Shown in pieces: positions 9,188 to 17,897 of a stretch of 64,000 nt of DNA. Origin of the DNA: an uncultured Candidatus Saccharibacteria bacterium (lineage in GTDB: Bacteria; Patescibacteriota; JACMRA01); NCBI GenBank assembly GCA_964434775.1, contig CAYSWH010000005.1, forward strand, positions 2,706 through 66,705, written 5' to 3'. The notes under the pieces are model-generated. The model saw only the letters and a program-made list of their open reading frames with translations, was not told the DNA's origin and did not search any database. The translations under genes and the position numbers were made by a program. Each line of letters begins with the position of its first letter. Position 1 is the first letter of the stretch.

Positions 9188-9271
9188 TTCCATTGGTGGA
9201 AAAACATCAGGATCAAAAATTCGTAGTCTCCGCTTTCGCCCTGGTAGAGTGGGTGTTTGGGGTTTAGAATC
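9188..9271 (+). repeat. ~80-bp repeat unit, copy A (TTCCATTGGTGGAAA..CATCAGGAT..AAAAATTC..TCTCC.CTTTCG.CC.GGTAG.GTGGGTGT..GGGTT)
   Basis: Aligns with 11376-11455. It is preceded by a degenerate GTAG hairpin starting at 9170. Confidence 0.7.
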
Positions 9272-9333: not shown

Positions 9334-10572
9334 ATGAGTCAAAATTTAGCTAGAAATATAAATGAAGATTTAATCTTGAATATCCAAAACACTCCTGTCA
9401 CTCTTCTCAATGGAGTGCGTCAAAGTGGTAAAAGCACCCTTTTAAAAGAACTGCAAAAACAAAAAATTGTAAGTGAATATATCACTTTAGATAGCCTGGA
9501 AACTCAAGCTCTACTTTCAGAATCTCCAGAAAAATATTTAGAAAGTCTGCCAACTGGAACTGCTATTGATGAAATCCAAAGGATGCCAGAGGTTTTTTTA
9601 AGCATCAAAAAAGTAGTAGATGAAAACCGCATGCCTGGCAGGTTTATTTTGAGTGGTTCTGCAAATGTTTTAGCTCTACCAAAACTGGCTGACTCTTTAG
9701 CTGGACGGATGCAGATCAATACTCTTTACCCTCTATCTTCTGGTGAAAAAAATGGAATTAAAGAAAACTTTATCGACTGGGCTTTTAATTCAAGTTCAAC
9801 TTTAAAAAGGGAAAAATCTGAAAAATTAGATTGGGAGGAAATGGTTTTAAATACTGGGTTCCCTGAAACTTATAAATCTAGTGGAACGGTTTTAGAAAAT
9901 TGGTATCAAGCCTTTGAAACTACTTTGATTCAAAAAGATATAAGAGAATTAAGCGACATTGAAAAACTTGGCTATATTCCTAAACTTTTGAGGTTAACTG
10001 CTGGCAGAGTGGCTTCTACGGTTAGTTATTCTGATCTAGCTAGAAGTCTTGAAATCTCCAATATGTCGGTCAAAAGATATTTAGAACTTTTAAAGGCTCT
10101 TTATTTAATTTTGGAAGTACCTGCTTGGAGTGGTAGTTATACCAAAAGACTGACTAAATCACCAAAGATTTTCTTTTTAGATAACGGGTTTTTGGGTTAT
10201 CAACTAGGTTTAGATAAAAATTATTTATTAAAAAACAGGGAAGTTTTTGGTAAAATGCTAGAAAACCTGATAGCTACGGAGTTAATTAAACAAGTCTCTT
10301 GGAGCGATGCCAGACCAAAAATTTATCATTTCAGAGAAGTTTCTGGGGAAGAAATTGATTTGATTTTGGAAAACAGACGAGGTGAAATTGTAGCCATTGA
10401 AGTAAAATCTAGTAATAGAATCAAACCAGAATATTTAAAAAACTTAAATAAATTTAAAGAAAAAATGGGGAATAAGGTTATCAAATATATTTTGGTTTAT
10501 ACTGGAGATCAGGTGGAAGTAGTCGGAGATACTTTGGTTTTGCCAGCCCAGAAGTTGTTTGAGAAATTTTAG
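9334..10572 (+). CDS. AAA+ ATPase with DUF4143 C-terminal domain (AAA_14 family), copy 2 (divergent paralogue)
   Basis: Walker A NGVRQSGKSTLL and Walker B GTAIDEIQ, with C-terminal KIFFLDNGF...EEIDLIL. It has the same architecture as 2778-3911 and shares AAATTAGTAT immediately before the start codon. Confidence 0.8.
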   Translation: MSQNLARNINEDLILNIQNTPVTLLNGVRQSGKSTLLKELQKQKIVSEYITLDSLETQALLSESPEKYLESLPTGTAIDEIQRMPEVFLSIKKVVDENRMPGRFILSGSANVLALPKLADSLAGRMQINTLYPLSSGEKNGIKENFIDWAFNSSSTLKREKSEKLDWEEMVLNTGFPETYKSSGTVLENWYQAFETTLIQKDIRELSDIEKLGYIPKLLRLTAGRVASTVSYSDLARSLEISNMSVKRYLELLKALYLILEVPAWSGSYTKRLTKSPKIFFLDNGFLGYQLGLDKNYLLKNREVFGKMLENLIATELIKQVSWSDARPKIYHFREVSGEEIDLILENRRGEIVAIEVKSSNRIKPEYLKNLNKFKEKMGNKVIKYILVYTGDQVEVVGDTLVLPAQKLFEKF

Positions 10573-10674: not shown

Positions 10675-11283
10675 TCATTTTTTGAATATTTTTGATTTAG
10701 GATTAAGTGAGTCCAAATGCCAATTTAGAGGATTATAAAAAATATATTCTCGAATCCGATCCAAATCTTCTTGATCTCGAATAATATGATCATGAAATGA
10801 TTTTTGCCAGATTGTGTTATATTTTTGAATCAAAGTAGAGGCGATGCCCACATCGCCAACCGCTCCATTACCACCCACAACGCCAATTTCATTACCACAA
10901 ATAATCTCATCTTGTTTGATATAAAAAAGTGTCTTTTTCTTAAAAGCTTTTATAGTATTTCCTAAATTATTCTTATAATTATTAAATCCAATTATTGCAT
11001 GAAAATGATTTGGCATAATTACAAATTCATCCAAAATAATATCGTCATAAAATTTTAAACCATCCAACCAAGCTTTTTCTACATATTCCCCGATTATTGT
11101 TTTTTGTGGTTGTGGGGTTTTTGATTCTTGTAAATATGGCGATGAGGGCATCGCCTCTACGATATGGGATAAAATTTGTTTTTTGTCTTGCACACAAATC
11201 GTCACAAAATACCAATACCCGCCTTGATATAATTCTCTAAATGGTAATCGGTTTCGTTTTCGAATGAATTTTGGTTTTGGCAT
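10675..11283 (-). CDS. REP-associated tyrosine transposase (RAYT, IS200/IS605-like Y1 HUH transposase)
   Basis: YWYFVTICVQDKK near the N-terminus, HUH motif MPNHFHAIIGF, then WQKSFHDHIIRD and REYIFYNPLNW near the C-terminus. GTAG-hairpin REP elements lie in and around the gene. Confidence 0.75.
   Translation of the reverse strand: MPKPKFIRKRNRLPFRELYQGGYWYFVTICVQDKKQILSHIVEAMPSSPYLQESKTPQPQKTIIGEYVEKAWLDGLKFYDDIILDEFVIMPNHFHAIIGFNNYKNNLGNTIKAFKKKTLFYIKQDEIICGNEIGVVGGNGAVGDVGIASTLIQKYNTIWQKSFHDHIIRDQEDLDRIREYIFYNPLNWHLDSLNPKSKIFKK
10835..10857 (+). repeat. REP element (GTAG + hairpin) inside the RAYT gene
   Basis: GTAGAGGCGATGCCCACATCGCC, with stem GGCGATG/CATCGCC. It is read in-frame on the minus strand as GAVGDVGIASTL. 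Confidence 0.75.
11138..11160 (-). repeat. REP element (GTAG + hairpin) inside the RAYT gene, inverted relative to 10835-10857
   Basis: The plus strand is GGCGATGAGGGCATCGCCTCTAC. It encodes VEAMPSSP in the RAYT frame. A 26-nt segment (11136-11161) is identical to 15489-15514. Confidence 0.8.
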
Positions 11284-11305: not shown

Positions 11306-11379
11306 GTAGCGGAAGACCTCCTCTTCCATTTTGACCGTACAATTTTATATTCCGTAGTAGCGGAAGTCCCCTGACTTCC
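11306..11379 (+). repeat. Two REP elements of a second family (GTAGCGGAAG..CTTCC)
   Basis: GTAGCGGAAGACCTCCTCTTCC (11306-11327) and GTAGCGGAAGTCCCCTGACTTCC (11357-11379). A degenerate relative, TTAGCGGAAGTCTCTGCTTTCC, lies at 8948-8969. Confidence 0.7.
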
Positions 11380-11455
11380 ATTGGTGGAAACACATCAGGA
11401 TTAAAAATTCCACCGTCTCCACTTTCGTCCAGGTAGGGTGGGTGTATGTTGGGTT
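11376..11455 (+). repeat. ~80-bp repeat unit, copy B
   Basis: Aligns with 9188-9271 and lies between the RAYT start and the OLD-gene stop. Confidence 0.7.
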
Positions 11456-11459
11456 ATTT

Positions 11460-13208
11460 TTAAAAAGGCATTTTTACTTCATCTAGCAAATCGCCTTCTT
11501 GACCATCTTCTAAATTGCCGAAATTATACTCCTCTGTTTTTATTTTTCCATCAATAAAATCAAGTAAATTTTGAGGCAAGAGATTATTAGGGAAATCTGC
11601 CTTTTGAAACTCTCTAACTTTATTCCAAACTGCAATATCACTCTTGTTTGTTTTATCAATTTCTAAAACTTTTTCTAAATTTCTTTTATTAAAATGAAGT
11701 CTATCTTCACTCTCAACTAATTCCATAATCTTTTGATTTTTAGTCCATTGTTGCCTATCTGCTTTTAGCTTATTTCTTACTTTTTGATTTTCTTTATCAC
11801 CTTCAATTTTTTCTATGTTTCGCAACTTATGAGGATTGATGTCATCATCTAAATCCCAGTCATGAATAATAAAATAATCTATTTTTAGAGCTTTGCAAAT
11901 TTGAATCAAGATTATTGACTTATCTTTGCCGTGAACTGGTAAAATAGCGATATTGTTATAATTTAAATAATGCTCATCTTCAAAATAAATACTGATAGCT
12001 TTAGAATAAGCCAATAAATCCATAGGTCCCTCAACCAAAATAACTTTATCACTAAAAACCAGTTTTCCTAAATTCGGTTCAATTTGTTGAATAAATTTTG
12101 AATTGTCTTTATATCTTTCTAAATTATAAGAAACAACAGCTTCTGGGTTTTCATCTGAAATATTTTCATTTGGCAATTTTGGTTCGAATGCTCCAGTCAA
12201 CTGATGAACTTTTGTTGATTTGCCATCATGAGAAAGCCTTATAATTGTTTCTGGACTAAATATATCAACCATTTTTTTACTATGAGTCGTATAAATTACT
12301 TGATTATTTTTTGCTAGTTCACAGAGGACTTTATTGTAAAAATATTCTTGATGGTTTTCGTGTAAAAATGTTTCTGGTTCTTCAAAAATAAAAACATTTC
12401 CTTTCTCGTTATTATCTTTCGCAATAGCTTGAAGCATGGCGATTATAAACATTGAAATATAGCCATCACCAAAATTTTCAATAGGCAAAATTCCATTTTC
12501 GGTTTTCAAGCTAAAAACCATTTTATAAAAAATATCTTCATAATTAGGAAGCCCAAATTTAAGTTCAAAATCTTCTTTTTCCTTTCTTAAAATTTCTTTT
12601 AAATGGGTTTGAGTATTATCTTTAAAGGTTTTAAAATCAGGAGCTAAACCTACATAATTTTCAATAGCAGGTTGTAAGGTTTGTTCTATCCAGTCTTTAA
12701 AATTACCATTATTGTCGTACTTATCTCTAAATTTTTTAAGAGTTTTACCAAGAAAGGTTTTTATTGAACCCCAGCTTGATTTAGTTTCCAACTGTTTTTT
12801 AATTTCGTGGAAATTTATATAGTAGATTGGTAGAGTTTTACCAAAGAAGCTCTTTTCCAGTCTCGGCTTCCAGCTATCACCTTCTCTATGCATGTAAAGA
12901 TGAGAAAGAGTATGGTCATAATCTAAACCGCATTCTTTACTTTCAAAAAAACTATTTATTTCTAAGTTTATATTTTTATCACAGTTAAAAAAATCTTTTT
13001 CGGAAAATTTATCTTCACCAAGCCATTCAACCCCCATTGTGTAAAGTAGTGATTTTATAATATTAGTTTTTCCAGTGTTGTTGTAACCTACAATTGAAAT
13101 TGGTTTGCCATTGCCCTCTTCAAAATCAGGAAAAACAATTTTTTGACCCTCACCATCAAAAGACCGATAATTTTTAATTTCTATTGAATTTATTTTTAAA
13201 TAAGACAC
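11460..13208 (-). CDS. OLD-family nuclease (ABC-type ATPase + C-terminal Toprim domain)
   Basis: The N-terminus INSIEIKNYRSF plus Walker A GYNNTGKTNIIKSL, and Walker B-like VFIFEEPETFLHENHQ. Toprim motifs are VILVEGPMDLLAY and IIHDWDLDDD. The start is a GTG 3 nt after the preceding small ORF. Confidence 0.75.
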   Translation of the reverse strand: MSYLKINSIEIKNYRSFDGEGQKIVFPDFEEGNGKPISIVGYNNTGKTNIIKSLLYTMGVEWLGEDKFSEKDFFNCDKNINLEINSFFESKECGLDYDHTLSHLYMHREGDSWKPRLEKSFFGKTLPIYYINFHEIKKQLETKSSWGSIKTFLGKTLKKFRDKYDNNGNFKDWIEQTLQPAIENYVGLAPDFKTFKDNTQTHLKEILRKEKEDFELKFGLPNYEDIFYKMVFSLKTENGILPIENFGDGYISMFIIAMLQAIAKDNNEKGNVFIFEEPETFLHENHQEYFYNKVLCELAKNNQVIYTTHSKKMVDIFSPETIIRLSHDGKSTKVHQLTGAFEPKLPNENISDENPEAVVSYNLERYKDNSKFIQQIEPNLGKLVFSDKVILVEGPMDLLAYSKAISIYFEDEHYLNYNNIAILPVHGKDKSIILIQICKALKIDYFIIHDWDLDDDINPHKLRNIEKIEGDKENQKVRNKLKADRQQWTKNQKIMELVESEDRLHFNKRNLEKVLEIDKTNKSDIAVWNKVREFQKADFPNNLLPQNLLDFIDGKIKTEEYNFGNLEDGQEGDLLDEVKMPF

Positions 13209-13211
13209 AAT

Positions 13212-13346
13212 TTATTTATTAAAGTTAATTTTAAATTCTTCTAAAAAATTTTTAAGATCAACTGCTTGATCATTATCTTTGTATTTTTCTTGAATTATTT
13301 GTCTTTGCTCATCTGTTAAAACATCTTCTAAAATTCTAATTTTCAT
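13212..13346 (-). CDS. 44-aa ORF translationally coupled between the Abi_C gene and the OLD gene
   Basis: MKIRILEDVLTDEQRQIIQEKYKDNDQAVDLKNFLEEFKINFNK*. Its ATG overlaps the TGA of the upstream gene (ATGA), and its stop is 3 nt before the GTG of the OLD gene. It falls below the ORF-track size cutoff. Confidence 0.45.
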   Translation of the reverse strand: MKIRILEDVLTDEQRQIIQEKYKDNDQAVDLKNFLEEFKINFNK

Positions 13347-14446
13347 AAAAAAACCGCACTGTCACTAAAACTTCTAATTTTTCCATTTTCAATAACATAT
13401 TCTAACAATTTTCGTTTTAAAAAATTATCACATTTTTCTAAAAAACTTTTTACTTCTGACTCTTTCAGTAATTCATCTCTTGTTTTTCGTTCATATTTTT
13501 CTCTAAATGGCTCTGAACGATTTTTATACGGTAAATTTTTATCAAAATTATCCAGTTCACTTTGCAACTCTTCAATTCTAAACTTTTGGTATTCTAAAAC
13601 ATCGTAAATAAAATCAATAAAAGCAAAAGCAGAATTTACAGCTAATTTTGCATGTCGTTTTGAAGGTTTAAACTTCCTACTATGACCATCTCCAGCAATG
13701 TTTCTTAAAGAAGCTAAACCGTTTAATATAGATGATAAACCTGTAATAATCTGCTTTAGAGAGTCATTTAATTGATTTTTTGGATCTAAATTTAATTCTT
13801 TTTTTAGTTTATTCCAGTATTGTTCAATTTTGCCATTTCTATCCAATTCTATATTAGTAGCTTCTTTATAAATTTCAATTAACACATCCTCAAGCAAACT
13901 TCTTACATTAGTAATTACCCCATCAAAATCACCTGAATCTAATTTTTTCTCTATTTTATCAAATTGCTCTAAAGCAAATTCTCTTGTAATTTTACCCTGA
14001 TTATAAATTTTAATTGTTGAATTATCATCTTGAATAAAAAATACTGGTTCAATATCTGTTATTTCTATTTCTTGGTAATCTTCTGGAATCTCACTACCAT
14101 ATCTTGGTACTAAAAATTTTGAAGTATAGTTTATTGGTTGTTTATAATAATTATCAATTTTAAAAACTTTACCAATTTTACTATATAATTTTTCAACTTC
14201 TTTTATATCTTGGATTAATTTAATCAATTCTCTACTGGGCTCTGCATTAAAATTACGATTTGTTTTACTTTTTTGATTCATGAAATCAAACAAATCATTC
14301 AATCTACTATGAAAACTTATACAAATTTCTTTTTCTAAACCTTTTAAATTTGAATATATTTCTTCATATAAATAATTTTTAGAGTAATCAAACTCTTCTA
14401 ATATTTGCTGAATTTTCTTATAAATTACTTCTTTTGAAACTGACAT
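13343..14446 (-). CDS. Abi_C (abortive-infection C-terminal)-domain protein with unknown N- and C-terminal regions
   Basis: The central segment ...GVITNVRSLLEDVLIEIYK...SSILNGLASLRNIAGDGHSRKFKPSKRHAKLAVNSAFAFIDFI matches the ..lRN..g.aHg......A.lavn.a..l..fl pattern I associate with Pfam Abi_C. The gene starts 5 nt after the MmeI-like gene stop. Confidence 0.55.
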   Translation of the reverse strand: MSVSKEVIYKKIQQILEEFDYSKNYLYEEIYSNLKGLEKEICISFHSRLNDLFDFMNQKSKTNRNFNAEPSRELIKLIQDIKEVEKLYSKIGKVFKIDNYYKQPINYTSKFLVPRYGSEIPEDYQEIEITDIEPVFFIQDDNSTIKIYNQGKITREFALEQFDKIEKKLDSGDFDGVITNVRSLLEDVLIEIYKEATNIELDRNGKIEQYWNKLKKELNLDPKNQLNDSLKQIITGLSSILNGLASLRNIAGDGHSRKFKPSKRHAKLAVNSAFAFIDFIYDVLEYQKFRIEELQSELDNFDKNLPYKNRSEPFREKYERKTRDELLKESEVKSFLEKCDNFLKRKLLEYVIENGKIRSFSDSAVFL

Positions 14447-14451
14447 AAATC

Positions 14452-17409
14452 CTACCCATTAAACCCCTTATAAATTTCAAACAACCACTCCACCCTCTCT
14501 ACATCGTCTTTGAAGCTGGTTTTTTTGGAAAACACCCCGTCAACCTTACGGTTGCCACCCCTCAAGAGGGGAATTGTCTGTAGGTAAGCTTCATCTACGG
14601 CTTTGTCCAATATCTGGTGAGCTTTGGTAAGTTCCGGTGGCATGGCTAAGGGGTCGTAGAGGTCGGCTAGGCTGGTATCTTTAAATTTGGCTCTGATTTC
14701 CAAAACCTCCTTTGCACATTTTTCTATTTTGGTTTTTAGATTCTCATTTTTGAGTTCTGGTTTATTTGGGATTTCACCGTCCACGCCTGACCATGGGAAG
14801 TTGTTGTAAACTACTAGATTTGAATAGCGATAATCAGATTTCATTCTTCCACAGGTATATTTTACCCAAGCCATATGCATTTTTGAAGTTAAGACTCCAA
14901 AGTGATAAAGATTTACATTTGGAACAATCAAACAAGTATCTCCAGCAATAAAATTAGACTGGAATAAACTTATTGGTATGTATTTTCTTCTTTCTGAACT
15001 AACTCTAGGAATTAAGATATAATCTGTATCAGGTTGTCTAATTTCTCCAAAAAGCATTGGAAATTCTCCTAATTTTCTGGTTGCTTCTCGACTACTTGAT
15101 AATCTCAATTCTTTAACTTTTTCTACTCTTTCCATAACTAACGGAAGTTTTTTGAGTTCGGTCGGCAAAACATCTTTTAGCCATAAACACCACCTATTCT
15201 GTCCGTTTAGGTATTCCTTAGCACTCAAAAGTGGTTTGATATATTTCTCTGCTTCTGGCTCTTTGGCTATAAATTCTTGTTTTTCTTGCTCTGTAAACAA
15301 AAAATTACCTCCATCGTTTGGCATGTTTCCAAAAACAATTTCAGGCACATTACAAATTGGCTTGCTCCTTTTGGTTATCACCACATTATCCGCTTCCACC
15401 AAATACGGATTGATATTTTTGACGGTTTTGGGGACTGGTTCGGCTTTTAAATCTGGGTAGGTGAAGAGGATTTTTGGTTGCGATGAAAATGGCGATGAGG
15501 GCATCGCCTCTACGGAGGATGCTACTCTAAACCCAATAATAATTACGGTTACTTGGGCTTTTCCTCGTGCCTCACTTGTCCAGCTAAAACTCTTGTGAGC
15601 AAATTTAATCTCCACCCCAAACCGTTTAAACATCTCGCCCCAAAGTATTCCCACCTGTTCACCTTGACTAATCGAATTAGTGGATACAAAAGCCGCTTCA
15701 ATTTTTGGATTTTGATTTAATAGCTCCCCAGCCTTGATATACCAAGCGGTTACATAATCCATAACTCCAGCACCATTCACCCCACTAAAAATTTCTTTCA
15801 TCTCGTTTCGTTGCTCTTTAGATTGAAGCCGTGAACCCACAAACGGAGGATTGCCGATGATGTAGATTTGTTGATTTTGCCAATTTTGTTGTAGAGGCGA
15901 ACCTGTTTCGCCATTATGGAGGGATAGACCCTCCGCTACAGAATCGTTGTTCGTCATCAAATTCTCCAGTCCAGCCAAATTTCCTTTTGGCGAATAATTG
16001 CCGTTTAGCACTTCCTCCCAGCTAACTTTTAAGGCATTTTCATGAACTATAGTTGCCTGTTTTTTTAGAGGAATACGGACAAAATACTGACCCAGATCTT
16101 TAGAAAGTTCTATATTAGCAATGTGATCCATCAGCCACAGAGCAGTTTCAGCGATTTTGGCAGGAAATTCCTCTATTTCAATTCCATAAAATTGATCAAC
16201 ATCAACTACAGAAAACAAAGAGGAATCTAAGGCTTCAGATCCATTTTTGTTTAAAAGTTTGATAACTTCCAATTCCAAATTTCGAATTTCTCGATAAGTT
16301 ATAACCAAAAAATTTCCACAACCACAGGCAGGGTCAAAGAATTTTAATTTTCCAAGTTTTTTGTGAAATTCCTTTAGCTTGTTTATATTCTTTTTACTCT
16401 TTTCAAATTCTTCCCAAAGATCATCCAAAAATAATGGCTTGATAGTTCTAAGAATTATTTTCTCTTCAGTGTAATGAGCTCCAAAACTTCTTCTTTTGTC
16501 TTTGTCCATGACGTATTGAAACAGTGAGCCAAAAATGGCAGGGCTAATTCCAGACCAATTGAATTTGCAAGCTTTGATCAAAGTTTGTCTCATTTTGGAA
16601 TCAAACTGTGGAGTTTCCATATTTCTAGCGAAAGCAAAAAGACCTCCGTTAATGTAGCAAAACCTAGCCAAATCTTCATCCAAATTTTTTAATCTTTCCT
16701 CTTCAGGTTTGTTTAAAATCTCAAAAATATATTTAATTTGAGAACCTAAATCACTACCATCCTTATTAGTCCTATTGATTAAATAGTCTGTAAAAATCGA
16801 CTTTTCAAAAATATTTGTATCTTCAGCAAAAAGAATAAAAAGCAGTCTAACCAAAAAAATCTCCAAATCATGTCCATGATAACCAACCTCAAACAAATCA
16901 TCGTGAATTTGCCCCATCAATTCAGCAGCCTGAATATTCACCATCTCCTGATTTTCATGAATTGTAGAGATTTGCCCACCCATGAACTTAAAACTGTCAA
17001 GATGTTCAGGTAAATTTTCAGTTTTTATTTCTAAAACTTTACCTGCCTGTTTATCTTCTAATCTTATATTTTCAAAATCTGAAACGATTGCGTAATTTGG
17101 ATATTCTTCATCACTCAAATCAACCAAATATTCACTACTTTGGGTTTGAGCTTTGTCCAAATCTTCCCCTTTTGATTTATGTTCACAAATCAAAATACCA
17201 GGCCAAAAAACATCGATAAAACCTCCTTTTTTATTCCCTAATCTTTGGGTATATTTTTCAAAGTCAGCCACTCTTTTTCTTTCAATTCCAAAGATATGAA
17301 AAAACTCATTCCAAAAAGTATCTTTTTCGGCTCGTTCCCGACTTTCATCTTTCCAATCATTAGCAAATTTAATCGCTCTACTTTTGATTTCGTTTGGAGA
17401 AATAGGCAT
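14452..17409 (-). CDS. MmeI-family type IIL/IIG restriction-modification enzyme (nuclease + N6-adenine methyltransferase + TRD)
   Basis: N-terminal nuclease motif D-X9-E-X-K in GFIDVFWPGILICEHKSKGEDLDKA. Methyltransferase motif I is FFDPACGCGNFLV and motif IV is IIGNPPFVGS. The ~985-aa length includes three in-frame REP-derived inserts. Confidence 0.8.
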   Translation of the reverse strand: MPISPNEIKSRAIKFANDWKDESRERAEKDTFWNEFFHIFGIERKRVADFEKYTQRLGNKKGGFIDVFWPGILICEHKSKGEDLDKAQTQSSEYLVDLSDEEYPNYAIVSDFENIRLEDKQAGKVLEIKTENLPEHLDSFKFMGGQISTIHENQEMVNIQAAELMGQIHDDLFEVGYHGHDLEIFLVRLLFILFAEDTNIFEKSIFTDYLINRTNKDGSDLGSQIKYIFEILNKPEEERLKNLDEDLARFCYINGGLFAFARNMETPQFDSKMRQTLIKACKFNWSGISPAIFGSLFQYVMDKDKRRSFGAHYTEEKIILRTIKPLFLDDLWEEFEKSKKNINKLKEFHKKLGKLKFFDPACGCGNFLVITYREIRNLELEVIKLLNKNGSEALDSSLFSVVDVDQFYGIEIEEFPAKIAETALWLMDHIANIELSKDLGQYFVRIPLKKQATIVHENALKVSWEEVLNGNYSPKGNLAGLENLMTNNDSVAEGLSLHNGETGSPLQQNWQNQQIYIIGNPPFVGSRLQSKEQRNEMKEIFSGVNGAGVMDYVTAWYIKAGELLNQNPKIEAAFVSTNSISQGEQVGILWGEMFKRFGVEIKFAHKSFSWTSEARGKAQVTVIIIGFRVASSVEAMPSSPFSSQPKILFTYPDLKAEPVPKTVKNINPYLVEADNVVITKRSKPICNVPEIVFGNMPNDGGNFLFTEQEKQEFIAKEPEAEKYIKPLLSAKEYLNGQNRWCLWLKDVLPTELKKLPLVMERVEKVKELRLSSSREATRKLGEFPMLFGEIRQPDTDYILIPRVSSERRKYIPISLFQSNFIAGDTCLIVPNVNLYHFGVLTSKMHMAWVKYTCGRMKSDYRYSNLVVYNNFPWSGVDGEIPNKPELKNENLKTKIEKCAKEVLEIRAKFKDTSLADLYDPLAMPPELTKAHQILDKAVDEAYLQTIPLLRGGNRKVDGVFSKKTSFKDDVERVEWLFEIYKGFNG
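15491..15513 (-). repeat. REP element inserted in-frame in the MmeI-like gene
   Basis: GGCGATGAGGGCATCGCCTCTAC, the same 23-mer as 11138-11160. It is translated as SVEAMPSSPFSS. Confidence 0.8.
15891..15939 (+). repeat. REP doublet (REPIN-like inverted pair) inserted in-frame in the MmeI-like gene
   Basis: GTAGAGGCGAACCTGTTTCGCC-ATTAT-GGAGGGATAGACCCTCCGCTAC, which is GTAG-hairpin ... hairpin-CTAC. It is translated on the minus strand as VAEGLSLHNGETGSPL, 13 codons upstream of NPPF. Confidence 0.75.
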
Positions 17410-17600
17410 GTCCCAAAATTCTTTAGAAGTTTTGAATTTTAGACAAGTTTAAAAGGTGAGTGAAGAATTTGAAAAGCAGAAGCTTTCCTCTACGGATTTT
17501 ATTTTTAAAAACCACCCTGTCAAAATGGCAAGGCAGGCCTACCTCTACGACCACTTCTTAGTCTTGAAACCGCAAGGGTTGTGTTGCGGGATGATTAGGT

Positions 17601-17897
17601 GATTAGAATTTTAATTTATAGTCTATCCGAATATAACCTATACATGCTTGTTACGGCGATCTTGTTTCGGCATCTCTTTCGAGAGTAGATCCTGAAATAA
17701 TAATTGTCATTCCGAACTTGTTTCGGAATCTCTTTCGAATAGATCCTGAAATAAATTCAGGATGACGGGGCAGTTTTGGTTTTCAGGATGACTGTGTGGT
17801 AAATTCAGGATGACGGGATAGCAAATTCAGCATGACCATTTGGCAATTGACGGAGTAAAATTTGGAATTGTCTAGATTTAAGAGGGGCTATATCTCA
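17601..17897 (+). repeat. Repeat cluster A: a third REP-like family ((G/A)TAGATCCTGAAATAAATTCAGGATGAC), a tandemly duplicated ~57-bp unit, and 4-5 copies of TTCAGGATGAC at 22-26 bp spacing
   Basis: Units at 17655-17711 and 17712-17766. TTCAGGATGAC occurs at 17756, 17782 and 17804, with TTCAGCATGAC at 17826. The 5' and 3' parts align with 20028-20186. Confidence 0.75.

Follow-up and report, generated by a model that had tools for sequence, protein, structure and literature searches.

In a 64-kb stretch of contig CAYSWH010000005.1 from an uncultured Candidatus Saccharibacteria bacterium (hereafter, the window), a cluster of minus-strand genes at positions 11460-17409 encodes an MmeI-type IIL/IIG restriction-modification (R-M) enzyme, a protein with an Abi_C domain that falls into the AbiJ family, and an OLD-family ATPase/Toprim nuclease. 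The initial annotation of this cluster had recognized these gene identities, which are upheld by Pfam and PADLOC, and had proposed that the Abi_C and OLD proteins, joined by a tiny third open reading frame (ORF), form a dedicated new sensor/effector module docked behind the R-M gene. As framed, such a system would have added a defence family, but the evidence says otherwise. The cluster is, in our estimate, most likely a co-transcribed defence islet that consists of an R-M gene and two independently acquired, AT-rich passengers of known kinds, and not a new two-protein system; judging from sequence, each component belongs to a known family.

The gene cluster and its products

The four minus-strand ORFs of the initial annotation occupy exactly the coordinates that it gave and are joined as it described, with a 5-nt gap between the MmeI-family gene and the 367-aa ORF (TAG gattt ATG), an ATGA stop-start overlap between the 367-aa and 44-aa ORFs (the junction reads TTATGA) and a 3-nt gap between the 44-aa ORF and the OLD gene (TAA att GTG). 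Alignment with homologues nevertheless shows that the cluster comprises three genes, one of them frameshifted, and not four. Its features are:

14452..17409, minus strand: MmeI-family R-M gene, 985 aa
13343..14446, minus strand: AbiJ-family gene, 5' part, 367 aa, ended early by a frameshift
13347..13353, minus strand: T7 run, the frameshift site in the AbiJ-family gene, with one base fewer than in intact homologues
13212..13346, minus strand: severed C-terminal tail of the AbiJ-family gene (44-aa ORF), no family match by itself
11460..13208, minus strand: OLD-family nuclease gene, 582 aa, GTG start
17496..17523, minus strand: candidate promoter for the whole cluster, sigma-70-like (TTGACA-16-TAAAAT), by consensus match alone

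The candidate promoter matches 11/12 consensus positions, is the best match of the region and lies ~90 nt upstream of the MmeI start; promoter-like sites overall are close to chance in number (35 vs 28.5 +/- 5.8 in shuffles). No terminator-like site was seen between the genes of the cluster, which is probably co-transcribed from this promoter. The AbiJ-like and OLD ORFs have G+C contents (GC) of 0.245 and 0.286, lower than any other of the 47 window ORFs that reach 200 aa (window mean, 0.370), which bears out the extreme AT-richness remarked upon in the initial annotation. Both values, as well as the GC at third codon positions (GC3; 0.128 in the AbiJ-like ORF and 0.204 in the OLD ORF), are low enough to support its suggestion of separate acquisition.

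The R-M protein carries MmeI_N (residues 11-173), MmeI_hel (180-258), MmeI_Mtase (335-630), MmeI_TRD (673-874) and MmeI_C (891-944), all above the Pfam cut-offs, and so unites nuclease, helical spacer, gamma-class N6-adenine methyltransferase, target-recognition and C-terminal domains in one polypeptide. It matches the PADLOC model REase_MTase_IIG with 1150.9 bits and has thousands of homologues at about 50% identity or more. The nuclease motif, read from the translation, is DVFWPGILICEHK (D-x9-E-x-K; D-VFWPGILIC-E-H-K), and the methyltransferase motifs are FDPACGCGNF and IGNPPFVG, with NPPF kept in the homologue alignment. D-x9-E-x-K is a motif of the PD-(D/E)xK type, and the other two correspond to the S-adenosylmethionine motif I and the NPPF motif IV, respectively; MmeI-type enzymes cleave ~20/18 nt from an asymmetric site and methylate a single strand.

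Small insertions are apparent in this gene. A 24-nt palindrome, GTAGAGGCGATG-N4-CATCGCCA, is present at 10835-10858, 11137-11160 and 15490-15513 (3 copies in 64 kb vs 0 expected), with extended similarity between 11115-11161 and 15468-15514; two copies are part of the ORF of a neighbouring REP-associated tyrosine transposase-like (RAYT-like) gene and the third belongs to the MmeI ORF, each of them in frame. The MmeI copy encodes ...VEAMPSSPF..., which is inserted between the methyltransferase and target-recognition domains by comparison with a 71%-identical homologue; a 73%-identical homologue carries another insertion at this site. In-frame palindromes of this kind resemble REP-like hairpins inserting into genes (compare the Rickettsia palindromic elements). 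Near the MmeI C-terminus, a 19-aa in-frame insertion, LQTIPLLRGGNRKVDGVFS (14528-14584), missing in all six aligned homologues, is overlapped by a short, G+C-rich hairpin, CCCCTCAAGAGGGG (14558-14571), and might represent another small palindromic insertion. The region upstream of the gene (17640-17850) contains short tandem and interspersed repeats, with three 22-nt units of the TTCAGGATGAC type and two copies of TTGTTTCGG(C/A)ATCTCTTTCGA.

In the OLD-family protein, AAA_15, AAA_21 and OLD-like_TOPRIM are found in one 582-aa ORF (Pfam), with the ABC ATPase at the N-terminus and the Toprim domain at the C-terminus; the ORF is full-length and its N-terminus is colinear with those of homologues. 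The intact Walker A, Walker B-like EEPE and Toprim E and DxD motifs pointed out in the initial annotation were all recovered: Walker A (GYNNTGKT) and Walker B (FEEPE) do not vary among the 22 homologues aligned, and neither do K47, E276/E277/E279, H309, E393, D397, D450 and D452, among which E393 and D450/D452 are the Toprim acidic residues. The Walker A, Walker B, H-loop and Toprim motifs align with those of the Class 1 enzyme TsOLD from Thermus scotoductus (6P74), the only solved OLD-family structure that was retrieved by sequence (no GajA chain was). Among the best 25 of the 52 PADLOC families matched, the top one is 'Old' (1.5e-28), ahead of the best GajA model (2.2e-25), and the matches to the AriA and AbiLi models are confined to the ATPase part. 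The observation that the partners defining Gabija, PARIS and retron systems are missing also holds: no UvrD-like helicase, reverse transcriptase or HNH gene adjoins the cluster (ORF list and Pfam), no GajB (UvrD/PcrA/Rep-like helicase) adjoins the window OLD gene or its relatives, and the ATPase and Toprim domains are fused, not divided between two proteins as in PARIS, AbiL and RloAB, where the Toprim protein is of the DUF4435/RloB type. In the OLD classes as defined in PMC10568477, PMC12392090 and PMC12796447, a UvrD-like helicase partner marks Class 2, a reverse transcriptase Class 3 and a split into AriA and AriB Class 4; the architecture of the window protein and its missing partner fit a Class 1-type, single-polypeptide, partner-less OLD nuclease. 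Class 1 OLD genes are described as stand-alone genes in variable gene neighbourhoods (PMC12796447; PMC10568477), and some of the enzymes protect alone (PMC12392090; PMC13261556).

The AbiJ-family protein matches Abi_C (PF14355) at residues 211-281 (63.6 bits vs a cut-off of 24; E 1.8e-17, Pfam), in keeping with the initial annotation; the regions flanking this domain, which it had considered unknown, are accounted for in part by the PADLOC AbiJ model PDLC02347, which covers residues 38-287 (E 3.8e-27; model positions 42-280/281, 85%). The protein consists of an N-terminal domain (~28-139) and a HEPN/Abi_C domain predicted to be an RNase (~160-287), after which a helical C-terminal extension begins. 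The HEPN-type R-x6-H motif is R248-NIAGDG-H255, and across the AbiJ family alignment N249 and H255 are invariant and D253 nearly so. The fold was compared on an AlphaFold model (mean pLDDT 75) of the 65%-identical homologue P0002, in place of the window protein; this model superposes locally on the HEPN structures 2hsb (probability 1.00, TMt 0.72), 1wol (0.99) and 1o3u (0.97), with local matches only and no whole-fold match at E<=0.001. A PDB sequence search with the AbiJ profile yielded only chance-level hemerythrin matches, and neither the AbiJ-like nor the OLD protein has a match in NCBIfam.

The C-terminal extension (~125 aa) is confidently modelled, has no structural match and, among the named genomes, is present in only a few relatives, mostly metagenome-assembled genomes of Patescibacteria; this AbiJ variant with an uncharacterised C-terminal domain is a useful remainder of the analysis. 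The N-terminal domain recurs fused to a protein kinase in P0011 (393 aa) and to a different, unannotated C-terminal domain in P0012 (356 aa), which indicates that it is a shuffled, putative sensor domain combined with several effectors. By eye, the C-terminal domain of P0012 looks like a PD-(D/E)xK/DUF559-type nuclease; Pfam gives no match. AbiJ has been described as a HEPN protein with modular N-terminal domains (including the AbiJ-NTD1 sensor) that occurs in R-M operons (PMC3710099), and SadR, an Abi_C protein, has been shown to act as an RNase defence encoded by a single gene (PMC13590631); AbiJ proper, from Lactococcus lactis, is without mechanistic data (PMC13064643).

Genomic contexts of the passengers and the R-M gene

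The neighbours of either passenger differ from one relative to the next. The AbiJ gene P0003 (54% identity) has DUF218, NYN and RmuC genes as neighbours, and P0005 (45%) lies between an HsdS-like gene and the hsdR gene of a type I R-M operon; no OLD gene is found next to either of them. Among the OLD relatives, P0014 (76%) is preceded by genes for a 959-aa protein and Ntox21 and by small ORFs, P0015 (71%) lies between housekeeping genes and an HTH/SocA_Panacea gene, and P0016 (51%) is located directly behind hsdM-hsdS, with no Abi_C neighbour in any of the three. Reciprocal scans gave the same picture. Within 80 AbiJ loci, selected as one genome per GTDB species (1.21 Mb of flanks; 60 loci with at least 3 kb on both sides), a hidden Markov model (HMM) built from 121 OLD homologues found an OLD gene within 10 kb of AbiJ in a single case (L070), at a distance of 7 kb, and this count was unchanged at E<=10. 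Conversely, an AbiJ HMM detected no AbiJ gene in 80 metagenome loci of the OLD family, including 47 of the close subfamily; as a positive control, this HMM recovered 84 AbiJ-bearing loci. Thus, as far as these neighbourhoods tell, the OLD and Abi_C pair is not a conserved module, and the varied neighbours of the AbiJ relatives are those of a single-gene system. The initial annotation had itself named two outcomes as speaking against its proposal, assignment of the pair to named systems and a lack of co-occurrence elsewhere, and this is essentially what was found: each protein falls to a named single-gene system in the PADLOC search (AbiJ and Old, with the E-values given above), and the two genes do not co-occur recurrently.

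The position behind the R-M gene is variable as well. In the closest MmeI relatives (73% and 71% identity), the tightly spaced slot downstream is taken by quite different genes, namely a 992-aa protein without Pfam or other annotation, 13 nt past the stop of the MmeI relative (L171, 6679-9657), and an SLFN_AlbA_2/HATPase_c_4 protein, 5 nt past the stop and followed by a serine recombinase (L173, 11655-13283). Given that unrelated passengers are placed just as tightly behind MmeI relatives, the tight spacing is a property of the slot and not the mark of a dedicated partnership. The passengers are therefore docked behind the R-M gene as had been proposed, in what is a generic cassette phenomenon, and the cluster is a clean example of a known pattern, the variable, tightly spaced slot behind R-M genes that accommodates unrelated defence passengers. 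The 992-aa slot protein is a candidate defence gene by 'guilt by embedding'.

Both passenger families are associated with R-M genes beyond this locus. After clustering of the neighbours of the close OLD subfamily, the only recurrent families are HsdS (15 loci), HsdM (11) and HsdR (10), all confirmed by Pfam; of the 43 loci whose flanks could be used, 16 have Hsd genes around the OLD gene, in most cases arranged as hsdM-hsdS-OLD-hsdR on a single strand. No reverse transcriptase or other recurrent non-Hsd partner was found in these 43 loci, where retron non-coding RNA was not searched for. At least 7 of the 80 AbiJ loci are located beside type I R-M genes. In the literature, we found descriptions of the split RloAB and general surveys of embedded genes, and no explicit description of a full-length OLD gene between hsdS and hsdR. 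The R-M-embedded OLD loci lie within L092-L148 (for example, L100 3182-12493, L110, L123, L132 and L134), with one more in L009, and their OLD proteins are 35-40% identical to that of the window. The preference of this sizeable Class 1-type subfamily for a position between hsdS and hsdR bears on what triggers stand-alone OLD nucleases.

Given that both passenger families habitually ride in R-M operons, a role as back-up layers is plausible. Embedded ATPase/Toprim and HEPN genes have been proposed to back up R-M systems under anti-restriction (PMC10802264; 10.1101/2024.01.29.577857; PMC3710099), and the embedded ATPase-TOPRIM gene HEC-04 defends alone (10.1101/2024.01.29.577857); the possible second line behind restriction that the initial annotation had in mind fits these proposals. 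Under this scenario, both AT-rich passengers would have arrived by horizontal transfer and entered the variable slot that follows the R-M gene. The MmeI enzyme would methylate its own recognition sites, and DNA that enters the cell without this modification would be cut at a set distance from the recognition sequence. The N-terminal domain of the AbiJ-family protein would sense a phage component and release the HEPN RNase, resulting in abortive infection, as hypothesized previously (PMC3710099), and the OLD protein would work on its own, as a two-metal nuclease whose activity is gated by the binding or hydrolysis of ATP and set free upon infection. The two passengers would thus come into play when restriction is evaded.

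Several points weigh against the interpretation of the cluster as an R-M gene with independent passengers. The independence of the three genes is deduced from missing co-conservation, and an interaction between their products could still have evolved locally; the gaps of 3-5 nt fit coupled expression, too. The comparison covers only three independent contexts of OLD relatives with more than 50% identity and as many of AbiJ relatives with more than 45%, and the OLD and AbiJ HMMs are centred on their subfamilies, so that very distant members in the neighbourhoods could be missed. The PADLOC evidence consists of HMM matches alone, without the coverage and synteny rules that are used to call systems. 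Finally, the statement in a review that Class 1 OLD genes are not proximal to other defence genes (PMC10568477) fails for the window OLD gene and its subfamily.

A closer tie to restriction is conceivable, if rather unlikely. The OLD nuclease, and perhaps the AbiJ-family protein, would then depend functionally on the R-M system and serve as a guard activated when a phage anti-restriction protein disables restriction, by analogy with PrrC and EcoprrI or with PARIS triggered by Ocr. Such a dependence would account for the embedding of the OLD subfamily between hsdS and hsdR in many loci and for the AbiJ relatives inside type I R-M operons (PMC3710099), and it accords with the synergy proposed for RloAB, PARIS and HEPN-RM combinations (PMC10802264; PMC3710099; 10.1101/2024.01.29.577857). 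It is harder to reconcile with the closest OLD relatives (71% and 76% identity), which adjoin no R-M gene, and with the ~27 of the 43 subfamily loci without an Hsd neighbour; moreover, the R-M partner in the window belongs to type IIL instead of type I and thereby speaks against a specific dependency between the proteins, and TgvAB and HEC-04, the embedded systems tested so far, do not need the host system to function (PMC11411939; 10.1101/2024.01.29.577857).

It is more doubtful still whether the OLD protein represents a distinct, undescribed clade of partner-less R-M-operon guards, triggered by the anti-restriction measures of phages, that makes up, with the long-form AbiJ, a co-transcribed three-layer operon. 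If true, the locus would combine restriction, then a DNA/tRNA nuclease and then RNase-mediated suicide, which goes beyond a chance neighbourhood.

The split AbiJ-family gene

In a tblastn comparison with the first related loci, the 44-aa peptide matches L001 at 9129-9242, contiguous and in frame with the match of the 367-aa protein at 8001-9128. Moreover, the C-termini of the closest full-length AbiJ relatives, P0002 (420 aa, 65% identity), P0003 (416 aa, 54%) and P0005 (422 aa, 45%), align without gaps to the joined 367-aa and 44-aa pieces. What the initial annotation had counted as one of four genes, a tiny acidic/basic third ORF, is therefore the in-frame tail of AbiJ, separated from it by a frameshift. 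At the junction, the window residues SAVF[F/L]MKIRILEDV correspond to CNTFIMKLIILENV in P0002 and CDLFIMKLRILSEV in P0003, and the DNA reads GTT TTT TT- ATG AAA in the window where intact homologues have TTT ATA ATG AAA. Given that one base is missing at the T7 run, the ATGA 'overlap', previously taken as a sign of co-translation, is a frameshift scar or a homopolymer sequencing error and not translational coupling. The window gene is not the intact ORF that is typical of the AbiJ family and appears to be truncated here, being either impaired or mis-sequenced. For annotation in general, ATGA overlaps at tiny ORFs and homopolymer runs should be checked for frameshifts before coupling is inferred.

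The sole other assembly of the same genome, L008, is 100% identical over 11.66 kb and stops inside the OLD gene, before the junction. Positions 1-47 of this metagenome contig (Ga0153773_1001940) are 47 nt of Illumina TruSeq adapter fused to genomic sequence; the contig end is adapter contamination. The 76%-identical OLD gene (L006 and L007) is preceded by a 60-aa ORF, which was considered as a counterpart of the 44-aa ORF and rejected, as no similarity between the two ORFs was found.

The frameshift, together with the mobile-element debris nearby (the RAYT-like gene and palindromes inserted even within coding sequence), might suggest that the passengers are decaying remnants and that only the R-M enzyme is functional. 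We find this improbable: the OLD ORF is full-length and colinear at its N-terminus with all catalytic residues intact, and in AbiJ the frameshift leaves the N-terminal and HEPN domains untouched and removes only the last 44 of ~411 residues, with no other stops or frameshifts.

A deliberate split of the AbiJ-family gene, by programmed -1 ribosomal frameshifting on the U_UUU_UUA heptamer at the T7 run, would yield isoforms of 367 and 411 aa. The 0-frame T_TTT_TTA directly before TGA is the classic slippery arrangement, and the product of a -1 slip is colinear with the intact AbiJ homologues. These homologues, for their part, are encoded in a single frame, with TTT ATA ATG at the site and no slippery run; the 90 nt downstream of the T7 run fold too weakly (-6.1 kcal/mol) to make a convincing stimulatory structure, and the run itself is unremarkable, being one of 8 A/T runs of at least 7 in the 6-kb region. 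A one-base deletion or a sequencing error appears to be the simpler reading, and programmed slippage is very improbable.

Least credible of all is the dedicated, undescribed sensor/effector system of the Abi_C protein, the 44-aa peptide and OLD docked behind the R-M gene, for which the same-strand gaps of 3-5 nt, the low GC common to both genes (compatible with joint acquisition) and the lack of a known class-defining partner of OLD could be adduced, against a 44-aa ORF that is a frameshifted tail, nearest relatives of each gene that lack the other, co-occurrence in 1/80 and 0/80 loci, matches of each protein to a named single-gene system, unlike GC3 values (0.128 vs 0.204), and MmeI relatives with unrelated passengers that are just as tightly spaced.

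The surrounding island and comparison with known systems

Further genes of defence or mobile-element type are located downstream of the OLD gene:

10675..11283, minus strand: REP-associated tyrosine transposase-like (RAYT-like) gene, 202 aa, 176 nt downstream of OLD
9334..10572, plus strand: AAA_14/DUF4143 ATPase, PADLOC candidate PDC-S01, 426.3 bits, a further defence candidate
2778-3911: second AAA_14/DUF4143 ATPase, PDC-S01, 501 bits

The RAYT-like gene, a neighbour that lies outside the defence genes, matches NF047646 with 71.3 bits, below the 80-bit cut-off, has a weak Y1_Tnp match and contains two copies of the 24-nt palindrome. Between the two PDC-S01 genes are overlapping ORFs of 672 aa (4311-6329) and 417 aa (6274-7527) with no Pfam or PADLOC match, and a zeta-toxin-like gene (760-1278) and an aminoglycoside-2''-adenylyltransferase-like nucleotidyltransferase gene (1304-1849) are found nearby. 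The defence or mobile island probably spans at least 1-17.5 kb. A 35-nt direct repeat occurs at 9188-9222 and 11376-11410 and nowhere else in the window (94% identity; 0 expected). The 2.2-kb segment between its copies contains the DUF4143 ATPase (PDC-S01) and the RAYT-like gene, and the two copies may be the boundaries of a mobile cassette.

The R-M protein shares with MmeI type IIL (IIG) enzymes all five domains in the same order as well as the nuclease and methyltransferase motifs; it differs from its homologues in short, lineage-specific in-frame insertions, one of which is encoded by the local palindromic repeat. The second gene product resembles L. lactis AbiJ (Abi-859) and Staphylococcus aureus SadR in the Abi_C domain, the match to the AbiJ model, the R-x6-H motif, the HEPN fold (on the homologue model), the modular N-terminal domain, which recurs with other C-terminal partners just as AbiJ-NTD1 does (PMC3710099), and the occasional residence in R-M operons. 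It departs from the classical AbiJ of ~280 aa in the extra ~125-aa helical C-terminal extension, and the window gene is frameshifted 44 codons before its end.

The OLD-family protein resembles P2 Old, TsOLD (6P74), the Class 1 OLD of Vibrio cholerae and Escherichia coli YbjD/OldB in the fusion of an ABC ATPase with Toprim; the Walker A/B, H-loop and Toprim acidic residues of Class 1 OLD are kept, and there is no helicase, reverse transcriptase or split partner. Identity to the characterised Class 1 members is ~23% or lower and, in contrast to the description of the class in one review (PMC10568477), the window gene is part of a defence islet and its subfamily often resides in type I R-M operons. 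GajA models match the protein because GajA is itself an OLD-family ATPase-Toprim protein; unlike in Gabija, there is no GajB-like helicase neighbour, and the 'Old' model outscores GajA. Like HEC-04, which needs its Walker A and metal-site residues (10.1101/2024.01.29.577857), the window protein is a single fused ATPase-TOPRIM polypeptide; homology to HEC-04 is not established, and the HEC match among the best 25 of 52 PADLOC families is HEC-01A (1.1e-09). With Campylobacter RloAB it shares the location of an ATPase-Toprim gene inside or directly behind an R-M operon (PMC10802264), although RloAB is split into two genes and the window OLD is fused. Finally, the host in the window is a type IIL enzyme, whereas the settings of RloAB and HEC-04 are type I or Hma.

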